Source of the DNA: a virus
Taxonomy: Duplodnaviria > Heunggongvirae > Uroviricota > Caudoviricetes
Virus record (IMG/VR): IMGVR_UViG_2529292834_000017
Length of the DNA: 14,968 nt
Strand: one strand, 5' to 3'
Part shown: positions 2,070 to 14,029 of the stretch, piece by piece
How positions within the stretch are numbered: position 1 is the first letter of the stretch
Layout: each line of letters begins with the position of its first letter
Position numbers and translations under genes: made by a program
The notes under the pieces: model-generated
Told to the model about the DNA's origin: nothing
The model's input: the letters and a program-made list of their open reading frames with translations, nothing else
The model's database searches: none

Positions 2070-2109
2070 AGCCATTTTAAGCCATCATGAGCCATCATGA
2101 GCCATTATA
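2070..2109. repeat. Four tandem 10-bp repeats AGCCAT(T/C)(T/A)T(A/G) at exact helical phasing; probable protein-binding array in the int-alpA intergenic region
   Basis: AGCCATTTTA AGCCATCATG AGCCATCATG AGCCATTATA at 2070, 2080, 2090 and 2100, plus an isolated AGCCATT at 1997. Lies in an AT-rich, non-coding 480-bp spacer (1917-2397). Confidence 0.5.
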
Positions 2110-2285
2110 AACCGACTCAACCAATTGAATAATAAAAGATAAAAAGAAATGTAAAAACATGATGAATGACGATGAAAGATATAACTCTTTGATAAAACAA
2201 TGATTTTTTAAACTGGTAACTAATTGAAAATAAAGAAAATAATTATCCCACCTGCATTTGCAATCTTTCAGTGGATCGGTATTTT

Positions 2286-2318
2286 TTCAATAGATTTATA
2301 ATTTCTTTCAATAGATTC
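2286..2318 (+). promoter_or_regulatory. Direct repeat TTCAATAGATT x2 (22 bp apart) overlapping a weak sigma70-like promoter upstream of alpA
   Basis: TTCAATAGATT at 2286-2296 and 2308-2318. Possible -35 TTTCAA (2306-2311) and -10 TAGAAA (2328-2333) with 16-bp spacing, about 65 bp upstream of the alpA ATG. Promoter assignment is inference. Confidence 0.3.
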
Positions 2319-3059: not shown

Positions 3060-3893
3060 ATGAACATCGAAAAAAGCAGATTAATTTCTGAGGCCGCCCC
3101 TCATCTGAACGCCTCTCTGGGCACAATTAACGGTAATGAATTTGCCGCAATTGTCCCGGTTATTTCTGGTCATATAGGCGGGCGTGAAACCAATATTGTT
3201 AGCGCAAAAGCGTTACACAAAGCGTTGGGCGTGGGAAAAGACTTCTCTACATGGATCACTGATCGCATCTCTGAATATGACTTCACCATTGGGCACGATT
3301 ACTCAGTCCATAAAACAATTTCCCCAAATTTGGGGAAAAGCCCGAATGACGCGGCTTACAGCAAGATTAAGCAGTCTGGCAGACCCGGCAAAGACTATCT
3401 GTTAAGTGTCGGAATGGCGAAAGAACTGGCAATGATCGAACGCAATGATCAGGGTCGCGCTATCCGCCGTTATTTCATCCAGTGCGAGAAAGAATTACAG
3501 CGTAGCGTGCCTGAAATCGCCGCCCGCTATCGTCGCCAGCTAAAAGCCCGTATCAGTGCCGCAAACAACTTCAAGCCAATGTGCGATGCGCTGAATATGG
3601 CCCGTGCCGAGATGGGGAAAACGACGCAGCAACACCACTACACAAACGAGAGCAATATGATTTCTCGTATCGTTCTTGGTGGGCTAACTGCTAAGCAGTG
3701 GGCGCGGATAAATGGCTATTCTGGCGAACCTCGCGACCATATGAACGCAGAACAGCTTGAGCACCTCTCATATCTCGAAAGCACCAATATCACGTTAATT
3801 GATATGGGCATGGAATATGAGCAGCGCAAAGGAGAACTCACCCGCCTGTCGCAACGCTGGCTCGCCAAGCGTCTGGAGGCGGTCCATGTTTAA
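3060..3893 (+). CDS. Phage antirepressor-like protein (AntA/AntB-type N-terminal domain)
   Basis: 277-aa ORF with SD ACGGAG upstream. N-terminal segment IVSAKALHKALGVGKDFSTWITDRISEYDFTIGHDY fits the AntA-type pattern (A..LH..LGV...FS.WI..RI..Y.F.EG.D) as I remember it. Product call is moderate; coding call is good. Confidence 0.75.
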   Translation: MNIEKSRLISEAAPHLNASLGTINGNEFAAIVPVISGHIGGRETNIVSAKALHKALGVGKDFSTWITDRISEYDFTIGHDYSVHKTISPNLGKSPNDAAYSKIKQSGRPGKDYLLSVGMAKELAMIERNDQGRAIRRYFIQCEKELQRSVPEIAARYRRQLKARISAANNFKPMCDALNMARAEMGKTTQQHHYTNESNMISRIVLGGLTAKQWARINGYSGEPRDHMNAEQLEHLSYLESTNITLIDMGMEYEQRKGELTRLSQRWLAKRLEAVHV

Positions 3894-4068
3894 GCCGACA
3901 GGAACACCACAACCTCAAAAACGCTACAAAGATGCCCACGGAGCACTCGTTACTGTCGAAAGCGTGTCTCACAACCGAGTGACGTTTTATCGCGACGGGT
4001 ATCAATCGCCATGCGTACAACCGCTGGCACGTTTCATGAAGGAGTTCGCGGAGGTTAACAAATGCTAA
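3886..4068 (+). CDS. Small hypothetical protein (60 aa), coupled to upstream gene
   Basis: ATG at 3886 overlaps the stop of the upstream gene (ATGTTTAA), the same overlap style as the other junctions in this operon. Protein [60 protein letters not shown]. The ORF track extends to 3799 but that would overlap the upstream gene by 95 nt. Confidence 0.5.
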   Translation: MFKPTGTPQPQKRYKDAHGALVTVESVSHNRVTFYRDGYQSPCVQPLARFMKEFAEVNKC

Positions 4069-5129
4069 CCGCCCAGAAGAAGATATTTTCACTGGCTGGT
4101 ATGTCGCCAAAATCCAGCAATATGACAGCAAAGTCAGACATTAATACAGCAGATACAAGCAAAGTTTATCATTTGCTGGTGGTAGGAGCGGATGCCTTAA
4201 CTATGTCAGAAATTACGGTCGATGGTGTTAGCGTTGAGAAGGTCAGCGGCTATGCCAGAGAATTTCTGGTCGTAGATGGCTTTCTCTGCTCGTGTAGTGA
4301 CTCCACAAAAACCTTCGTCCACGCGCGTGACGTTAACGAAATGAGCGCGATGTACTGTGCTTCTGGTTCTTCCAATAGTGAGTTTTCGGAGTCCATAAAA
4401 AAGAGCTTGCCGTTATGCGGCAACACGGTTTATGGTTATAAGGCACCTCATAAAACGGGTGCCGGGATTGGCGTCCTAAAAATTCTGAAGGCGACATATG
4501 ACGCGCCAAGCGTCTTTTTTTATGTCGTAGGTCTGACTCACCCATTTTTTGGGCGTTGGTGTATAATCCAGCGCCTTTGTCAATCAATGGTGGCTCAGGC
4601 GGGGGCTTCTTCGGAAGCGCCGGTATCCTTCAGAGCCGGTTACGCCAACCCTGTCTGGGCTACCACCAGCGAAATTGGCGTTTCCGGTGGTAGCGTAACC
4701 TGCTATCTGAAGGAGGCTGCCACATGCTGGCTACTACCCCTACCCAAAAAACGCAATTTATCTGGATTATCGCCGCAGTTCGCCGCGATTGCCCGACAAT
4801 TACCGCCAAAATTCATCATATTGCTGCCGAGTCTGAACGCGATGCTCGCCGTTCTCTGGTGCGCGATCACGTCTGCTTTTTTGCTGGTCGTATCCGCATG
4901 GAGGTGGCACATGATTAAAACCTACGATGTGCATATGGATCCCCTCGAACGCACAAGCCAGATCATCACACTGACAGAAGTGATTAACGACATTCTGGTG
5001 AGCAACTCTCCCTCACGAGACGAAAGACTGAAGGCGTTACTCGCGATATTGGATCTCGCCGTTCGTGACGTTCATTTCCTGCTGGAAGGTGGCGAAATGC
5101 CAGTAAAAACGGGGGCAACCAATGAATAA
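4062..5129 (+). CDS. Questionable 355-aa ORF, probably not one gene
   Basis: The first ~145 codons (4062 to ~4500) look protein-like. The ORF then reads through a hairpin+U7 terminator (4500-4521), a perfect TATAAT (4562-4567), a UUCG-tetraloop hairpin and a 9-bp hairpin, and the SD/ATG of a better ORF in another frame (4724). Its last 72 codons coincide with the separate gene 4911-5129. An annotation pipeline could still call it as one hypothetical protein. Confidence 0.3.
4381..4403 (+). promoter_or_regulatory. Copy 1 of conserved promoter-proximal motif AGTTTT-N2-GAGTCCATAAAAAA (putative early-operon promoter element)
   Basis: GAGTCCATAAAAAA at 4389-4402 is identical to 10237-10250 (14/14), with matching AGTTTT upstream in both. 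Followed by a perfect palindrome TTGCCG-N5-CGGCAA (4406-4422) and, about 100 nt downstream, a hairpin terminator. Confidence 0.35.
4500..4521 (+). terminator. Intrinsic terminator-like hairpin in the immunity leader (timm-like)
   Basis: GACGC-GCCAA-GCGTC stem-loop followed by TTTTTTT. Immediately preceded by TCTGAAGG (4484-4491), a seqA-like target complementary to 4628-4635. Confidence 0.45.
4530..4567 (+). promoter_or_regulatory. Sigma70-type promoter with perfect -10 TATAAT (4562-4567), weak -35
   Basis: TGTATAAT at 4560-4567. No good -35 hexamer at 17 bp, so activity is uncertain. Confidence 0.35.
4568..4700 (+). ncRNA. Candidate P4 CI / P1 C4-type antisense immunity RNA region (boundaries approximate)
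   Basis: Non-coding leader with a GCTTC-TTCG-GAAGC tetraloop hairpin (4605-4618) and a 9-bp perfect stem GCTACCACC/GGTGGTAGC (4659-4667 with 4686-4694). TCCTTCAGA at 4627-4635 is perfectly complementary to TCTGAAGGA at 4706-4714, which overlaps the SD (AGGAGG 4711-4716) of the Icd-like gene, and 8/8 complementary to 4484-4491. Family membership would need a covariance-model search. Confidence 0.4.
4724..4918 (+). CDS. Icd/Kil-like small protein (cell-division-inhibitor family of P1 icd / P4 kil position)
   Basis: 64-aa ORF with SD AAGGAGG (4706-4712). Motif [10 protein letters not shown]...[25 protein letters not shown] resembles Icd-like proteins as I remember them. Its stop overlaps the next ATG (ATGATTAA). 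Sits immediately downstream of the antisense-RNA-like leader, as in P1 immI and P4 immunity regions. Confidence 0.55.
   Translation: MLATTPTQKTQFIWIIAAVRRDCPTITAKIHHIAAESERDARRSLVRDHVCFFAGRIRMEVAHD
4911..5129 (+). CDS. Small hypothetical protein (72 aa), translationally coupled
   Basis: ATG at 4911 preceded by GGAGGTG; overlaps the upstream stop and the downstream start (ATGAATAA at 5122). Protein [32 protein letters not shown]... Confidence 0.5.
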   Translation: MIKTYDVHMDPLERTSQIITLTEVINDILVSNSPSRDERLKALLAILDLAVRDVHFLLEGGEMPVKTGATNE

Positions 5130-6401: not shown

Positions 6402-8753
6402 ATGCGAAACATTGATCTTATCCGTCAGGTTATCAGTGCGTCTGAAAACAACTGGCCTCATGTGCTGGACTGCCTGAACATAAATGTCCCTGACTCTCCG
6501 CGCCGTCATGCTCCCTGCCCTGCATGTGGGGGCAAAGATCGATTCCGGTTCGATGACAACGGGCGCGGTAGCTTCATCTGTAATCAGTGCGGCGCTGGTG
6601 ATGGGCTGGATTTAATTAAACGCGTAAATAACTGCGACACAACAGAGGCGGCGCTTCTTGCCGCTGATGTTCTGGGTATTGATTACCGGACAACGGAAAC
6701 ACCAGAAGCCACCAGCCAGAAACGGGAACAACTGGAAACCGAGCGCCAGCGACGCGAACAGGAGCGCCTGAAAAGGGCAGAGAAGGACGAACAACAAAGA
6801 CGGGATACGTTTTCCCGTCAGTTTGATGACATGCGCAGAAAGGCTGTAAACGGCAAATCTGATTATCTGGTTGCGAAAGGGGTAGGTGATTTTACATTCC
6901 CTGTGTTGCCCGATGGATCTCTGTTGCTGGCGCTGGTGGATAAATCCGGCGCAGTCACAGCAGCACAGACTATTACCTCACATGGTGAAAAAAGACTCCT
7001 GACAGGTTCAGCAAAGCGAGGGGCATATCACGCCATAAACGCACAGAAACGACCTCACAGCATCATAATTGCTGAGGGGGTGGCTACCGCCCTGTCGTGC
7101 CATTTAATTCGCCCTGACGCAATGACAGTGGCAGCAATCGACGCTGGCAACCTGTTGCCAGTAGCGGAAGTCATGCGCAGAACATATCCACAGGCACAAA
7201 TCATCATTGCCGCAGATAACGATCACCAGCAAGGAAACTCCGAAAGTGGAGGGATCAACACGGGGAAAGATGCCGCAGAGAGGGCCGCTATTTCCGTAGC
7301 TGGCTGGGTGTCTCTGCCACCGACTGACTATAAAGCCGACTGGAACGACTATCACCAACAACACGGGCTGGCGGCAGCCACAGCAGCATTTAAAGATTCG
7401 ATGTACCAGCCACGGGGGAAAGGGGCGCAGGTGAAAAATCACAAACAGTCAGTCGGGGCGCTGAATGAGATCAGTTCTGGCGAGGTGTTAAGCGATGATG
7501 AAATTGCTGTCCTCGAAGAAATCAACCGGACGTTTACGCATGTCACCATCGGCGGGAAACACAAGGTGGTGTCGCTAAAGCCTTCTCAAACCGGCGGTGT
7601 ATCGCACGTTTTCGAGGATTTATCACAATTTCAGCATTATTTTCATCATAAACCGAGAGTCGCCAGAAAGCTGGCGGGATCGGCGTGGCTGTCATGGAGT
7701 GGGAAGAACTACAAGCCAGGAGGCGTAGGATTTTATCCAGTACCAGACAAATGCCCTGACGATGTTTTTAATCTGTATGAGGGGCTGGCACTGGAACCAA
7801 TTGAAGGAGATTGCACGGTATACCTTAATCACCTGTTGCAGGTTGTCTGTGCCGGTAATGAAGAGGCATACCAATATCTTATCCAGTGGATGGCGCACAT
7901 TATCCAAAAGCCTGATGAAAAACCGTCCGTGGCAATCGTGATGAAATCTGTCCCGGGCACAGGGAAAGGCACAACGGTTAAACCGCTGCTGCAAATACTG
8001 GGGCAGTACGCCGCCCACATTAACGGGGCGGGACATATTTCAGGGCGCTTCAATTCAATACTTGCTAACAAGCTACTGGTATTTGCTGACGAAGTGACGA
8101 TCCACAAGCCGTCTGAAGCTGACAGACTTAAAGCGATTATTAGCGAACCGACGTTTAACCTTGAGCGCAAGGGAATTGATGCTGAACCAATGCCGAATTT
8201 TGCCCGGTTGATATTTGCCAGTAACAGCACACAGGTATTACAGGCAGGGATAAGAGAGCGCCGCTATCTCGTGCTTGAGCCATCTCCTGAAAAAGCACAG
8301 AGCCGGGAGTATTTTGATCGGCTGTACAGTTGGCTTAATGATGGCGGTGCCGCAAAGTTGCTTTGGCATCTTAAAGGGGTGGATCTCTCAGGTTTTGACC
8401 CTCAACGAGCGCCACAGACCGATGCCTTACGTGAAGAAATCTTGCTGGGGCTGTCTGGCGTTGAATTGTTTCTTTATGGCGAGCTAATCAATGAACCTCC
8501 GTTTAATGGCGAAGTCCGTTTGTTTGCAAAGGATATGGTTAGTCGATTTGTAGCGTGGTCGCTTGAGCGTGGGGAAAAGCTTAAAGAACCAGCTGCCAGA
8601 TCACTACTGGGTAAATCACTTGCACAAATGGGGCTGGTGAAGCATGGAAGACCAGACCGAGGGAATGGCGTGTTCTACGAACTACCAGAGGTCGGAGTTC
8701 TACAGGCTGCGTTTGCCCGTCTGATCGGTATGGGGGGGTATGATGTTTTTTAA
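6402..8753 (+). CDS. P4 alpha-type bifunctional DNA primase / SF3-like helicase (zinc ribbon + Toprim + D5/P4-family NTPase)
   Basis: 783-aa ORF with SD GGGGGC. N-terminal zinc ribbon CPACGGKDRFRFDDNGRGSFICNQCGAGDGLDLI (CxxC...CxxC), near-diagnostic of P4-alpha-like primases. Toprim-like IIIAEGVATAL and AADNDHQ (DxD). P-loop-like SVPGTGKGTT, Walker B-like LLVFADEV, sensor-like LIFASNS. Size matches P4 alpha (777 aa). Confidence 0.93.
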   Translation: MRNIDLIRQVISASENNWPHVLDCLNINVPDSPRRHAPCPACGGKDRFRFDDNGRGSFICNQCGAGDGLDLIKRVNNCDTTEAALLAADVLGIDYRTTETPEATSQKREQLETERQRREQERLKRAEKDEQQRRDTFSRQFDDMRRKAVNGKSDYLVAKGVGDFTFPVLPDGSLLLALVDKSGAVTAAQTITSHGEKRLLTGSAKRGAYHAINAQKRPHSIIIAEGVATALSCHLIRPDAMTVAAIDAGNLLPVAEVMRRTYPQAQIIIAADNDHQQGNSESGGINTGKDAAERAAISVAGWVSLPPTDYKADWNDYHQQHGLAAATAAFKDSMYQPRGKGAQVKNHKQSVGALNEISSGEVLSDDEIAVLEEINRTFTHVTIGGKHKVVSLKPSQTGGVSHVFEDLSQFQHYFHHKPRVARKLAGSAWLSWSGKNYKPGGVGFYPVPDKCPDDVFNLYEGLALEPIEGDCTVYLNHLLQVVCAGNEEAYQYLIQWMAHIIQKPDEKPSVAIVMKSVPGTGKGTTVKPLLQILGQYAAHINGAGHISGRFNSILANKLLVFADEVTIHKPSEADRLKAIISEPTFNLERKGIDAEPMPNFARLIFASNSTQVLQAGIRERRYLVLEPSPEKAQSREYFDRLYSWLNDGGAAKLLWHLKGVDLSGFDPQRAPQTDALREEILLGLSGVELFLYGELINEPPFNGEVRLFAKDMVSRFVAWSLERGEKLKEPAARSLLGKSLAQMGLVKHGRPDRGNGVFYELPEVGVLQAAFARLIGMGGYDVF

Positions 8754-8782
8754 TATAGTCTTTTTACAAGAAGATCGTTTTT

Positions 8783-8795
8783 ACCTGTACCACCT
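8783..8795 (-). repeat. Single iteron-like copy (reverse complement AGGTGGTACAGGT) 30 bp after the primase stop
   Basis: ACCTGTACCACCT on the + strand matches 13/14 of the GGTGGTACAGGTGG repeat clustered at 9809-9911. Confidence 0.45.
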
Positions 8796-8844
8796 ATACC
8801 ATTAACAAACGCATTTCTTCTGGCTGGCTGAGAGGGAACAACCA

Positions 8845-9075: not shown

Positions 9076-9802
9076 CTATTGCATACTGCAGGGAATGACC
9101 AGAACGGAGCGCGAAGAATTAAAAAGTTTCGCTACACAGTGCGGGAATGCTGGCGACATCCAAAGTCTGGAACGCACTTTAATTATGATTGCGCACTGGA
9201 TGCGCCAGGGGCAAAGAGTTTCATTTACTGAATATGCCAGCCAGTGGACAGAGGCACAGCGCGAACGGAGCGACGGTAATCACTCAACACCCGAAATGGC
9301 GAAGCAATGGCCTTTCAGTGGTAAACGCTGTATCAGTCCCGGTGGTTCAGATTATTACCCTGCTGGTGTGGGAGATGAGCCATGTTGTGACGAGACTGAA
9401 ATCCGCCACGCAGTGACAGTAATTACCGCTGAATACCCACAATTTAACCTTGACGGACTGGCGCTCCACAACCGGAATGCGGACTGGGAAAACCCGCTTG
9501 ATAACCCGTCATTTATCGTATCGGCGAAAAGCTGCCTGAGATGGATCAGAGACAACGGGATGAGTAATGCCCAGATTGAGAGCTTCCCGCAGGATAACCC
9601 CACATCTGACACGTTGAAGCATGAAGTGGAGCGATATAACCAGATAAACCACCAGCACAGTGATCACCCGCACTATATCCCCAACGGAGCATTTATTGCG
9701 GCGATGGTGGCAAGCGGCTACAAGGTTAAGCCAGCGGGAAGAATGAACGCATTTTTCAATATTTCAAAAAAGGGATTATGTGCTGCTATGGGTAAAAATT
9801 AA
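9065..9802 (+). CDS. Hypothetical protein (245 aa), Cys/His-containing
   Basis: SD GAGAGG before the ATG at 9065. Contains CCDETEIRH and HQHSDHPHY segments. No recognisable family. Confidence 0.65.
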   Translation: MNNNYCILQGMTRTEREELKSFATQCGNAGDIQSLERTLIMIAHWMRQGQRVSFTEYASQWTEAQRERSDGNHSTPEMAKQWPFSGKRCISPGGSDYYPAGVGDEPCCDETEIRHAVTVITAEYPQFNLDGLALHNRNADWENPLDNPSFIVSAKSCLRWIRDNGMSNAQIESFPQDNPTSDTLKHEVERYNQINHQHSDHPHYIPNGAFIAAMVASGYKVKPAGRMNAFFNISKKGLCAAMGKN

Positions 9803-9808
9803 ATAAAT

Positions 9809-9911
9809 GGTACAGGTCTGTACAGGTGGGGAGAGGTCATTTTTACCCACCTGTACCACCTGCAGGCCGCGCCACACAAGGGTTTGTGACATGGTGGTAC
9901 AGGTGGTACAG
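9809..9911. repeat. Iteron cluster: at least 3 copies of GGTGGTACAGGTGG in both orientations, including an 11-bp perfect inverted repeat; candidate replication origin / crr-like site
   Basis: GGTACAGGT at 9809-9817; GTACAGGTGGG at 9820-9830 is perfectly inverted to CCCACCTGTAC at 9846-9856 (15-nt spacer); GGTGGTACAGGTGGTACAG at 9893-9911. Non-coding position downstream of the primase-helicase. The origin role is inference by analogy to P4 alpha binding iterons in ori/crr. Confidence 0.5.
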
Positions 9912-10309: not shown

Positions 10310-10405
10310 GTGCTATTTGTTTCATATTTTGCAATCACAATGATGAATGTTGCGTTTTATGAAACTATAATGACTGTTGTTTTATACAGTTCTAAGGGGG
10401 GCGTT

Positions 10406-10579
10406 ATGGCTATTTCAGTAAAGCCAGTATTGATAAGTGAGAAGCAAATGGAAGCGATAAAGAAAATTCAGGAGGAGCAGCGTAAAAAATCAGAGGTAGG
10501 AGTTGCGCCAACGATCCACGAAATTGCTCGGGGATTAATGGATAAGGCGCTGGCTTACACTTTAACTGGACGTGGGTAA
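10406..10579 (+). CDS. Small hypothetical protein (57 aa), first gene of the cargo operon
   Basis: Strong SD AAGGGGGG 6 nt before the ATG at 10406. Protein MAISVKPVLISEKQMEAIKKIQEEQRKKSEVGVAPTIHEIARGLMDKALAYTLTGRG, charged and helical-looking. Possible small regulator or partner protein; inference only. Confidence 0.6.
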   Translation: MAISVKPVLISEKQMEAIKKIQEEQRKKSEVGVAPTIHEIARGLMDKALAYTLTGRG

Positions 10580-11927: not shown

Positions 11928-14029
11928 TCTTACCGGAAGGTTTTGTGCTCGATGAACAACCTGATAACTCACAGTTTCCTGATAGTTCACAGCTTCCTGA
12001 TGGTTTTGTGCTTGATGCCCAACCAGAACAGCAGCAATCACCTTTGGTTTCACCAGAGGAAAATTCCAGACAGGAAAATGTTGTTAATAATGCTAACGGT
12101 TTCGACCGTTTTATGTATGGCGTTCTCAGTGGATTGATGGATGTTGGTAAAGGTGTTGGCCTGTTTCAGGATATGACACCAGAAGAGCAAGCCGCAATTC
12201 AGTCTCTACAGCAGAAGTTAGCGGCAAAACCATCAACCGCACAAGATGTTGGTGAGTTCGTTGGACAAGCAGCGCCATTTGTTAGTGGTGGTGGGATTAT
12301 TTCTCAGGTTCCCAAAGGGGCGGCAAGACTGGCTGCCGCCGCAGGGCTTGGTGCTGGAGAAGGGGCTATTGTAGCCAATGGAACAAATAGCGATGTTGCT
12401 TCCGGCGCTGCTATTGGCGCTGTGGCTGGCCCTGTAGCCGAACTTGCTGGCCCTGCAATTAATAAAATAGCTGGGAAATTAACCAAGAAGAATGTTTCTT
12501 CGATTCCAGATATTGAGGGGATTACTCCTGCCGAAGAGAAAATTCGTAAGTTATCTGCACAAGGCAACCCAAATCTTGCCTCTTCGCTTGAAGGGCTAGA
12601 TCTAAAACCTCAGAAAGAAATTGTTGAGGCTGCAAATAGGCTTCATGTTGATTCAGTTCTTCCTTCTCATTTATCAGGAAATGAGCAATACCAAGCTGTA
12701 GAGCAAGCCCTAAAGTCACGGACAGGATCAGCGTTAAAAGCTCAAGAAGATAAAGCAATAAGCGAATTAGCCTCTAGTGCTGGCAAGATAATCGATGATG
12801 TTGCTGGTGCGCCAGATGCGTTAGCTATGAGCGAAAAATATATTTATCAGATAAATAGTAGAATGGAAGCACTAAAAAACCGTAGTGATCAGTTATATAA
12901 ACGTGTTGATTCCGCTCTATCACCAAGAACAAAAGTCGAAGCAAATAACACAAGCACTATGCTGGAAAAAATCGCTGATGATTTAGGAGGGTGGGATAAT
13001 CTTGACCCAATAGAAAAGCGAGTTTTTACAGCAATAAACCCCGGCCCAGATAGCATCCTAACGTATGCAAATTTAAACAGGCAAAGGCGTTTAGTTGGTG
13101 ATGCCCTAAATAAAAAGCAGGGGCCATACAAAGATGCTGATAAAGAAGCGCTATCAAGACTATATGGAGCTTTAGCTGAAGACCAAAAATCTGTCTTATC
13201 CAATACTGGATACTTGCGAGATTTCGAAGTCGCACAACGCCTTGTAGCTATGAGAAAAAACTTAGAAAGGCAAATGGTAAATCTTCGCGGGAAAACACTT
13301 AATGGGGATATAGCGTATAAAGTAACGAATTCTCTTCAATCTATGGCAAAAGGTGATGCGAGAGGGTTTCGTGAGATTATGCAAAATACTCCATCAAGAA
13401 CATTGCGAAGGGAGCTAGTAGGAACAGCATTAAGAGATATGCTTTCCTCTGGGAAGCGTGGGGCCGACTTTAATCCATCTGGCTTCGCAGATTGGTGGCA
13501 AAACTTGCAACACAGTGGACAGCTAAAGACTTTGGCTGAACATTTGCCAAAAGAAACAATGAGCGGACTATATGATGTATACAAAGTTGCCAGAGCAATA
13601 AAAAATGCTAAAGCGCATGAAATATCTACTGGTAAGCTGAATGAGTTTGTAAACAGATTTAATCGGGTAACAGCTCCATACGAACTAGCAGCAAAACACA
13701 TTCAAAAAATAGGCACGATGGTAGGCGCTCATTTTGGATCGCTTGGAGCCATTGCTGGGGCTGATATTGGAGCAAGATTGGCGAGTAAAGCTCGATTAGC
13801 TGGTGGAGCAGGGGCGGCTGATGCTGCGGATAAATTAATTGCCTCGCCAGCCTTCCAGAGCGCAGTAAAAAATCTACACGGAAAAGCGCCTGGGCACATT
13901 GTTGATTCACGTATCAGGCGCTCCCCTCAATGGAAGAGTTTTTTTAACTCTCTTCCTGAACAGGAAAAACGGACCATCGCCAGACTGGGCATCATTACTT
14001 GGCTATCTAATGATCCAGATAATGACTAG
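11912..14029 (+). CDS. Hypothetical 705-aa protein with N-terminal tandem repeat and Gly/Ala-rich amphipathic segments
   Basis: ATG at 11912 with AGGAA 6 nt upstream; overlaps the end of the upstream gene by 16 nt. N-terminus has a tandem repeat LPEGFVLDEQP / LPDGFVLDAQP. Gly/Ala-rich stretches at residues ~125-180 (AARLAAAAGLGAGEGAIVANG...AIGAVAGPVAELAGPAINKIAGKL) and near the C-terminus (GSLGAIAGADIGARLASKARLAGGAGAADAADKLIASPA). No enzymatic motif recognised. GC content drops sharply after ~12500. Confidence 0.85.
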   Translation: MAANVILPEGFVLDEQPDNSQFPDSSQLPDGFVLDAQPEQQQSPLVSPEENSRQENVVNNANGFDRFMYGVLSGLMDVGKGVGLFQDMTPEEQAAIQSLQQKLAAKPSTAQDVGEFVGQAAPFVSGGGIISQVPKGAARLAAAAGLGAGEGAIVANGTNSDVASGAAIGAVAGPVAELAGPAINKIAGKLTKKNVSSIPDIEGITPAEEKIRKLSAQGNPNLASSLEGLDLKPQKEIVEAANRLHVDSVLPSHLSGNEQYQAVEQALKSRTGSALKAQEDKAISELASSAGKIIDDVAGAPDALAMSEKYIYQINSRMEALKNRSDQLYKRVDSALSPRTKVEANNTSTMLEKIADDLGGWDNLDPIEKRVFTAINPGPDSILTYANLNRQRRLVGDALNKKQGPYKDADKEALSRLYGALAEDQKSVLSNTGYLRDFEVAQRLVAMRKNLERQMVNLRGKTLNGDIAYKVTNSLQSMAKGDARGFREIMQNTPSRTLRRELVGTALRDMLSSGKRGADFNPSGFADWWQNLQHSGQLKTLAEHLPKETMSGLYDVYKVARAIKNAKAHEISTGKLNEFVNRFNRVTAPYELAAKHIQKIGTMVGAHFGSLGAIAGADIGARLASKARLAGGAGAADAADKLIASPAFQSAVKNLHGKAPGHIVDSRIRRSPQWKSFFNSLPEQEKRTIARLGIITWLSNDPDND

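Follow-up and report, generated by a model that had tools for sequence, protein, structure and literature searches.

The sequence analysed here, called the window, is a stretch of 14,968 nucleotides from a viral record (Caudoviricetes; IMG/VR record IMGVR_UViG_2529292834_000017). It belongs to a satellite island that mixes features of P4 with those of phage-inducible chromosomal islands (PICIs) and resembles EcCIMP1; relatives of the island integrate at the 3′ end of yicC, which in them adjoins the integrase gene. On the plus strand, to which all features below belong unless stated otherwise, a gene for a P4-type tyrosine integrase with an arm-binding domain (Int; nt 1–1269; Pfam Arm-DNA-bind_3, Phage_int_M and Phage_integrase) is followed by an unannotated gene of 216 codons, orf216 (nt 1266–1916), whose start overlaps the int stop codon. 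A spacer of 481 bp (nt 1917–2397) then separates orf216 from alpA (nt 2398–2616), which encodes a winged-helix regulator or excisionase of the AlpA/Vis family (Pfam Phage_AlpA and HTH_17; phrog_66, “excisionase and transcriptional regulator”). An earlier note, made from the letters alone, had placed the spacer directly between int and alpA and had read it as an organised control region. The latter proposal is supported: two sets of repeats are conserved in position across genera, and the set closer to alpA keeps its spacing and abuts a promoter with an invariant predicted −10 hexamer. The spacer is, with good probability, a functional control region of alpA.

The first set is a tandem array of decamers (nt 2060–2110), detected by Tandem Repeats Finder with a period of 10, 5.1 copies and the consensus AGCCATCATA. 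The motif AGCCAT starts at nt 2070, 2080, 2090 and 2100, so that the exact 10-bp spacing of four decamers seen at first holds, but the array has five units (AGCTATCATT, AGCCATTTTA, AGCCATCATG, AGCCATCATG and AGCCATTATA), the first being a degenerate one with AGCTAT at nt 2060. Three phased AGCCAT units were never obtained in 200 dinucleotide-preserving shuffles of the window. The 10-bp periodicity spans 12 helical turns (nt 2011–2130), with z scores of 5.3, 5.0 and 4.2 at lags of 10, 20 and 30 bp and of at most 1.1 at other lags. Its upstream, degenerate part (nt 2011–2059, delimited by register listing and lag-10 statistics) contains GTTCG (nt 2013) and GTTCA (nt 2023), which are 10 bp apart, in phase with the tract and similar to TorI-type sites. 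Downstream of the array lies an AT-rich tract (nt 2111–2265, about 26% GC by composition profile), of which the first 20 bp (nt 2111–2130) keep the 10-bp register.

No conserved open reading frame was found in the spacer. A minus-strand frame running across the array is shifted by the copy-number indel described below and is not conserved; the array is therefore non-coding. We considered a phase-variable contingency locus and rejected it, as the array is non-coding, far upstream of the core promoter and not between a −35 and a −10. An Rfam search of the spacer returned a single, sub-threshold match (CRISPR-DR10, minus strand), which coincides with a GC-rich hairpin just past the orf216 stop codon (nt 1928–1951; −15.1 kcal/mol, z = −2.8). 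This hairpin is terminator-like but has no T run, and a hairpin of unrelated sequence is found at the same place in other lineages.

The second set is proximal to the promoter. The sequence TTCAATAGATT occurs exactly at nt 2286 and 2307, and its first copy starts 176 bp past the end of the array, in agreement with the approximately 180 bp given earlier; the starts of the two copies are separated by 21 bp, instead of 22 bp, with a gap of 10 bp. When the spacer was shuffled with its dinucleotides preserved, an exact direct repeat of at least 11 nt within 30 bp arose in only 5 of 2000 cases. The two copies turned out to be the middle pair of four 12-mer boxes (consensus TTTYAATRGAWW, starting at nt 2266, 2285, 2306 and 2322): box 1 (TTTCAGTGGATC, nt 2266–2277), boxes 2 and 3 (both TTTCAATAGATT, nt 2285–2296 and 2306–2317, containing the exact repeat) and box 4 (TCTTAATAGAAA, nt 2322–2333). 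Relative to the alpA ATG they stand at about −132, −113, −92 and −76, and their positions are conserved. No such box was found elsewhere in the island or at its attP site.

Box 4 lies over the −35 position (TAGAAA, nt 2328–2333; spacing to the −10 read from the sequence) of a predicted alpA promoter, whose −10 hexamer is TAAACT (nt 2352–2357). A promoter consensus scan missed this hexamer because the −35 is poor. Transcription is predicted to begin near nt 2364. In an alignment of seven lineages it reads TAnnnT, with the T, the A and the final T (nt 2352, 2353 and 2357) invariant, and it keeps a fixed distance from the boxes and from the start codon, as expected of a sigma-70 promoter. The array ends 241 bp upstream of it. 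A box on the −35 of such a weak promoter is where a repressor or class II activator usually sits, and the most likely role of the boxes is that of operators or activator sites controlling the access of RNA polymerase.

Between the predicted promoter and alpA, the leader can form a hairpin (nt 2361–2391; −12.5 kcal/mol, z = −3.5) that encloses the Shine-Dalgarno sequence and holds TCATGAGCTATCA (nt 2368–2380) in its loop. Equivalent hairpins were found in the leaders of six other lineages, with compensating changes in the stem (CGTAAC/GTTACG, AGTAAC/GTTACT, CATAAC/GTTATG); the Rouxiella leader is unrelated in sequence and folds as well. The loop sequence AGCTATCA is kept wherever AlpA is at least 83% identical. 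RNAalifold gave no consensus on a MAFFT alignment of the leaders, in which loop lengths vary; the hairpin did appear in single-sequence folds. These predicted folds suggest that alpA may be under translational control.

To follow the repeats across relatives, homologues of AlpA and Orf216 were gathered from genome, viral and metagenome collections, together with contigs encoding Orf216 homologues. Both repeat sets were conserved in position in islands of the Klebsiella type, of Buttiauxella and of other lineages. The four boxes keep start-to-start distances of 19, 21 and 16 bp in loci L008, L046–48, L034, L051, L050/52 and L015/16, and this spacing holds down to 37% identity of Orf216 and 56% identity of AlpA (Rouxiella). 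The G-A of each box is invariant in the seven-lineage alignment. A lag-10 periodic tract is present about 190–505 bp upstream of alpA in all lineages but Rouxiella. It persists at the same position and in the same 10-bp phase in at least six diverged lineages, while its unit sequence drifts from AAGCCATCAT in E. coli to AAGCCGTCAT and AAGTCGTTAT in L008, AAGTCGTCAT in the Klebsiella type and GGTCATTAAA in Buttiauxella. The units are nonetheless homologous, with the consensus AAGYCRTYAT. Furthermore, every array-bearing lineage has a GTTCG-type site (YRGWYCRY; GTTCA in L008) about 376–402 bp upstream of alpA; four such sites follow one another at exact 10-bp steps in L046, and one Klebsiella-type allele has three CAGTCCGT plus CAGTTCGC with the same exact spacing.

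The number of units is polymorphic. Compared with the five units of the window, the E. coli, viral and metagenome copies that were read have four, with one AGCCATCATG fewer, and the listed E. coli matches are all about 10 bp shorter than the window. Similarly, Klebsiella-type spacers carry CCGTGCCAGY either twice or four times, and CATAGCGAGT once or three times. As a unit corresponds to one helical turn, slippage changes the copy number without changing the face of the helix, which explains why the polymorphism is tolerated.

Variable copy number is also what one would see if only the boxes were functional and the decamer tract were a slippage-prone minisatellite whose sequence has no specific role, at most a spacer or H-NS-silenced DNA. 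The strong drift of the unit sequence between lineages fits this idea, as do the Rouxiella loci, which have orf216 and boxes without the tract, and one strain (E. coli 500010, L003) in which an IS66-family, ISCro1-like element is inserted just upstream of the array, at the equivalent of about nt 2044, between the GTTCG part and the AGCCAT array. However, a minisatellite evolving neutrally would not be expected to retain its phase and location from one genus to another, and here a strict 10-bp phase recurs at one and the same site in six or more diverged lineages despite the changed sequence, the units share the core AAGYCRTYAT, and the GTTCG-type site has been retained at about 380 bp from alpA on its upstream side. 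We regard the minisatellite as an improbable explanation.

Another possibility is that the decamers mimic a pac site, to which a P22-like helper would bring its small terminase. The 22-bp pac site of P22, GAAGATTTATCTGAAGTCGTTA, ends in AAGTCGTTA, a 9-mer that is found twice in the L008 array and from which the window unit AAGCCATCA differs by three transitions; the island carries P22-type ejection-protein genes, and some PICIs are packaged via helper pac or cos sites (PMC6092414). Still, only 6 of 9 bases match in the window and the full 9-mer is shared by L008 alone. The Kapi1 genome, terS included, contains no phased pair of pac-like units, and a scan of IMG/VR for AGCCATCATGAGCCAT gave 25 matches, by a rough estimate about as many as chance would yield, of which three were the island and 22 were not inspected. 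Moreover, an element of the EcCIMP1 type lacks the tract, yet EcCIMP1 is packaged. A packaging role of the decamers is thus very unlikely.

The boxes and orf216 are always inherited together: every locus bearing an orf216 homologue has the four boxes, and orf216 is never separated from the repeat-bearing spacer. Conversely, in loci where AlpA is 86–93% identical and Int belongs to the same family but another gene stands between int and alpA, the spacer is short and contains neither set of repeats. Inheritance of the boxes is thus tied to orf216, and to neither AlpA nor Int. The Orf216 protein is the leading, though unproven, candidate for binding the boxes; we consider such binding possible but doubtful. 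In profile libraries Orf216 matched only phrog_30524, of unknown function; no match was obtained in Pfam, NCBIfam or a PDB profile search, and its AF2 model (pLDDT 66) retrieved nothing from the PDB with Foldseek. Two invariant segments were observed in the protein. The first, KSPIERLC.SVSITP.EMA.ALAGL.P near the N terminus, is helix-turn-helix-like and belongs to no database family; the second, RSGRGQHRK (residues 132–140), lies in a low-confidence, probably disordered loop.

Sister islands have other genes in the slot between int and alpA. The products share an N-terminal helix-turn-helix-like segment among themselves, and the islands have their own short repeats, spaced by 20–21 bp, or palindromes upstream of alpA. 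This weakly suggests that the slot holds interchangeable regulator–operator modules. The founding paper called the global repressor of Gram-negative phage-inducible islands “unclear” (PMC6092414). A bolder combination, in which the slot is one of swappable regulators (Orf216 here, unrelated proteins in sister islands, each with its own short repeats at the alpA promoter), Orf216 is the missing repressor or sensor acting at the boxes and the tract is a landing pad for the excisionase of the helper, appears rather unlikely as a whole.

The earlier note had also named integrase and a host nucleoid protein as possible ligands of the repeats. If the repeats were arm-type sites of the integrase, or sites for integration host factor (IHF), the spacer would be part of the recombination machinery. 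The integrase does carry an arm-binding domain, and each box partly resembles the IHF core (TCAAnnnnTT). An attP was derived from the putative circular form of the island (L002) and the chromosomal junctions (L001, nt 3900–4122); its core is the 3′ end of yicC, past the stop codon of which the K-12 sequence is unrelated, and the island carries a replacement terminator for yicC. Arm-type repeats GTGTACAYA flank the core on both sides at attP/attL. The att site is located upstream of int, at a distance of about 330 bp when the island is integrated, and is about 2 kb from the array in the circle. Neither the decamers nor the boxes are present at attP, where the Int arm sites are GTGTACAYA. In addition, loci L004, L005 and L006 encode an integrase of the same family (near-identical over the first 20 residues compared) and have neither motif; both repeat sets are likewise missing from loci with a near-identical Int and AlpA 90–93% identical but a different intervening gene. 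As for IHF, comparison by eye with the textbook consensus WATCAANNNNTTR showed two mismatches in the boxes of the window, and the Klebsiella-type boxes (TTTCAATGGAAA) lose the TT of the IHF core. The proposal that integrase binds the spacer repeats is thereby excluded, and that of a host nucleoid protein at the boxes is not supported; a recombination role of either repeat set is scarcely credible.

The attL/attP arm may provide a further link to the spacer. Between the core and the Int arm sites, the segment GTTATCATGAGCTATCAT consists of two phased GYTATCAT units; all lineages conserve it, including where the identity of AlpA is only 56%. The 13-mer TCATGAGCTATCA of this arm occurs exactly in the alpA leader and with 12 of 13 bases in the array; a shared word of that length was found in 6 of 1000 shuffled spacers. 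This bears on the third ligand first proposed, AlpA. For the decamers it stands as a candidate, given the one-turn direct repeats typical of excisionase-type winged-helix proteins and the related GTTATCATGAGCTATCAT in the attL arm, where sites for an excisionase would be expected; the boxes follow orf216.

Iteron-like tandem repeats next to about 230 bp of DNA with 26–33% GC are also what one expects at a replication origin, in which case the decamers would be iterons for the primase-helicase and the AT-rich tract a melting region. P4 offers a precedent: its annotated rep_origin (nt 9086–9809) has an equivalent position, upstream of vis, and includes three tandem decamers. Likewise, the GTTCAC repeats of L008 resemble the type 1 iterons of P4. 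The comparison of islands does not favour this view. In enterotoxigenic E. coli (ETEC) H10407 (L053), the primase-helicase gene is 99.9% identical in DNA and the neighbouring genes are similarly annotated, but the int/alpA module is different and there is no tract anywhere; this island is of the EcCIMP1 type, since the published AlpA sequence and PalpA primers match it, and EcCIMP1 is mobilised by a helper (PMC11773190). Conversely, the spacers of the window and L002 are identical except for one unit, while the C-terminal halves of their helicases are unrelated (DUF5906 versus DUF927). With the alpha protein of P4, the primase of the window has only the N-terminal primase domain in common, and TGTTCACC is not enriched in the window.

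The PICI origin has been reported to lie directly 3′ of the primase gene (pri-rep; PMC6092414), with two sets of iterons on either side of AT-rich DNA. The spacer is about 4 kb upstream of that gene, and ACCTATACC repeats are found directly 3′ of it (nt 8783–8801). There is a single set of them in the window (nt 8754–8844; Tandem Repeats Finder, nt 8783–8801), in a shorter intergenic region, and two sets, about 55 bp apart, in L053 (nt 10384–10487). The ACCTATACC region is likely a PICI-type origin, which may be partly deleted in the window. The spacer is very probably not the replication origin, and the positive proposal that it serves as one, as in P4, is highly unlikely.

The P4 precedent itself deserves comment. 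The “ori type 2 repeats” of P4 (L049) are three exactly tandem decamers (nt 9176–9205) upstream of vis/orf88. Read on the other strand they are TTAAAGTCA, TTAAAGCCA and TTAAAGCAA, and two of the three match the cox-box consensus TTAAA(G/C)NC(A/C) exactly, rather than the type 1 iteron. On this evidence they probably serve as sites for Cox and not as iterons of an origin, which the RefSeq record does not say. At the P4 attP, type 2-like decamers, as candidate sites for Vis, did not occur above chance.

The leading proposal for the decamers is a control function. Small winged-helix recombination directionality factors (RDFs) such as Xis, Cox, Apl, TorI and Vis occupy DNA cooperatively, with one monomer to each turn of the helix, and bend it or wrap it. 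The tract has, by its spacing, the layout used by these proteins: with five units exactly 10 bp apart it matches, in its spacing, the at least three direct repeats at 10–11 bp of an RDF-type operator array. Such operators are described as direct repeats one helix turn apart, with cooperative binding, bending and spreading (PMC7498355). Binding of an RDF-type protein to the decamers is plausible, though we would not call it probable. The data establish the anatomy, conservation and polymorphism of the spacer and its linkage to orf216, and rule out Int sites and, very probably, a cognate origin; the identity of the binding proteins and the direction of their effect on transcription are inferred. 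Our tentative overall reading is that of an alpA-promoter control region with two sets of cis elements, in which the decamers would be a phased landing pad and the boxes operators.

In detail, a weak alpA promoter would be gated by the four boxes, specific to the module. AlpA, by self-activation, and/or the excisionase of an induced helper, as the inducing signal, would polymerise on the phased tract, the core of which is the AGCCATCATR decamers, about 250–340 bp upstream of the −10. The bound protein could then bend the flexible AT-rich DNA or spread across it, thereby relieving silencing or repression at the boxes. Switching on alpA would start the excision-replication cycle of the island. 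The model for such an activation is P2 Cox at P4 PLL, acting via cox-box decamers upstream of vis. That AlpA is the master switch, as had been expected, was shown for EcCICFT073 and EcCIMP1 (PMC6092414, PMC11773190) and would apply here by analogy only; the AlpA of EcCIMP1 is only 32% identical and is preceded by a different promoter region.

Several observations weigh against this reading. The array lies about 240–300 bp from the promoter, compared with about −90 to −120 for the cox boxes of P4, so that looping or spreading is needed; an RDF operator would be expected to overlap the promoter that it regulates or to lie within about 120 bp of it, which this array does not. Rouxiella keeps orf216 and the boxes without a tract. 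Loci with almost identical AlpA also lack it, and autoregulation by AlpA can therefore not generally depend on the tract. Locus L050, with AlpA only 56% identical, retains homologous TCGTTAT-type units, so that covariation of array and AlpA is not clear. The 13-mer shared with the att arm sits, in the leader, in a hairpin loop, and may there be an RNA feature rather than a DNA site. Orf216 has no recognisable DNA-binding domain, and its N-terminal segment, a putative helix-turn-helix, is different in E. coli and Rouxiella, yet the boxes are nearly the same. The resemblance to TorI sites, a degenerate core of 5–8 nt, is thin. Finally, the published PalpA experiments used other promoter sequences, as the EcCIMP1 primers match L053 and not the window. 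A published PalpA reporter (−449 to +50) had been considered as covering the spacer; by its supplementary primers and AlpA sequence it is an L053-type promoter, and it serves as an analogy only.

The spacer is widespread among E. coli, being present in 111 of 5426 complete genomes; the one chromosomal copy examined (L001) is located downstream of yicC. It was also found on a circular record of 12,152 bp deposited as a plasmid (L002, NZ_CP148430.1), which looks like the excised form of the island. No match was obtained among phages, and plasmids gave only this 12-kb circle. A similar spacer, in an island whose AlpA is 90% identical, was observed on a 429-kb contig labelled Chryseobacterium sp. 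(L008, CACSKA010000004.1), and the enterobacterial type of the island suggests that this assembly is mislabelled or contaminated.

Downstream of alpA, the island has an operon with AntA, an “Ash” open reading frame, the primase-helicase gene and the P22-type ejection-protein genes. Two Rfam matches above the gathering score were observed within nt 4443–4670 (plus strand; nt 4443–4520 and 4583–4670), one to isrK (60.5 bits) and one to the C4 antisense RNA family (C4/P4-CI-type, 79.9 bits), which includes the P4 CI immunity RNA. Both fall inside the “Ash” frame (nt 4062–5129), a region that relatives annotate as a gene for an “ash family protein”. It is possible that the island has RNA immunity in the style of P4 and that the “Ash” call is partly spurious. 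In the primase-helicase (nt 6402–8753, compared with nt 3758–6514 of L002), the N-terminal primase halves are 85% identical over 350 residues and the C-terminal halves unrelated, which is suggestive of an exchange of domains within the replication gene of otherwise near-identical islands. An 18-bp tandem repeat, CCTGATAACTCACAGCTT (2.3 copies, nt 11960–12001, plus strand), lies at the start of a gene for a 705-residue DNA-transfer protein and is found in ETEC H10407 too.

The spacer thus provides defined, conserved and mutable targets, namely the boxes at the −35, the phased array and the linked orf216, and a natural pair of alleles with four and five units. If the P4/Cox logic applies, induction would be signalled by excisionase cross-talk between mobile elements, of which EcCIMP1 and Kapi1 already offer an example. 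Otherwise, the architecture of the alpA promoter has been mapped for a widespread family, and the idea that such repeats mark an origin is corrected. Phased RDF-type repeats upstream of the promoter of a satellite master regulator are of a known kind, that of P4. What is new is the sequence itself, its arrangement in two tiers and the association with a variable gene slot; we found no description of these elements in the literature searched.

Among the PICIs, EcCICFT073 and EcCIMP1 have the same gene order of int, alpA and operon. Where compared, the rest of the island is near-identical to the EcCIMP1-type element of ETEC H10407, with 99.9% DNA identity in the primase region. In contrast, the module of int, intervening gene and alpA has been replaced; EcCIMP1 has a divergent neighbouring gene and a short spacer that lacks both sets of repeats. 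As to orf216, the regulator Stl of staphylococcal SaPIs is likewise encoded by a variable, element-specific gene adjoining int; through its cognate sites Stl governs the master lytic promoter, and it is itself a target of helper proteins. Stl is, however, a proven repressor and divergently transcribed, whereas orf216 is co-directional with int and has no homology to it.

Closer parallels to the decamers are provided by Apl of phage 186 and TorI of the KplE1 prophage, which use three to seven degenerate direct repeats with a spacing of 10–11 bp, at att and at a promoter (PMC7498355, PMC2951348). The TorI sites at the KplE1 attL have GTTCG, GATCG or GTCCG cores with a 10-bp period (PMC2951348). 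Similarly, the tract of the island has phased GTTCG/GTCCG-type cores and a related phased motif is found in its attL arm, although the AGCCAT units are without the CG of the TorI core. Furthermore, the sites of Apl and TorI overlap or abut the promoters that they repress, whereas the tract of the island is distal and activation would be expected.

The comparison with P4 is the closest. Upstream of P4 PLL, P2 Cox occupies boxes 10–11 bp apart and derepresses P4 (PMC3936717). The repeat sequences of the two satellites are unrelated (TTAAAGNCA versus AGCCATCAT), and three tandem units at about −90 to −120 in P4 compare with five units, within a 12-turn tract, about 240–300 bp from the −10 in the island. 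P4 has no counterpart of the four promoter-proximal boxes and has a delta/Ogr site at −55 instead. In P4, a small winged-helix, excisionase-type protein of the helper binds the repeats and switches the satellite on, whereas for the island such a role is proposed. In both satellites, nevertheless, tandem 10-bp direct repeats, one helical turn apart, lie upstream of the promoter of an AlpA-family gene, which in P4 is vis.

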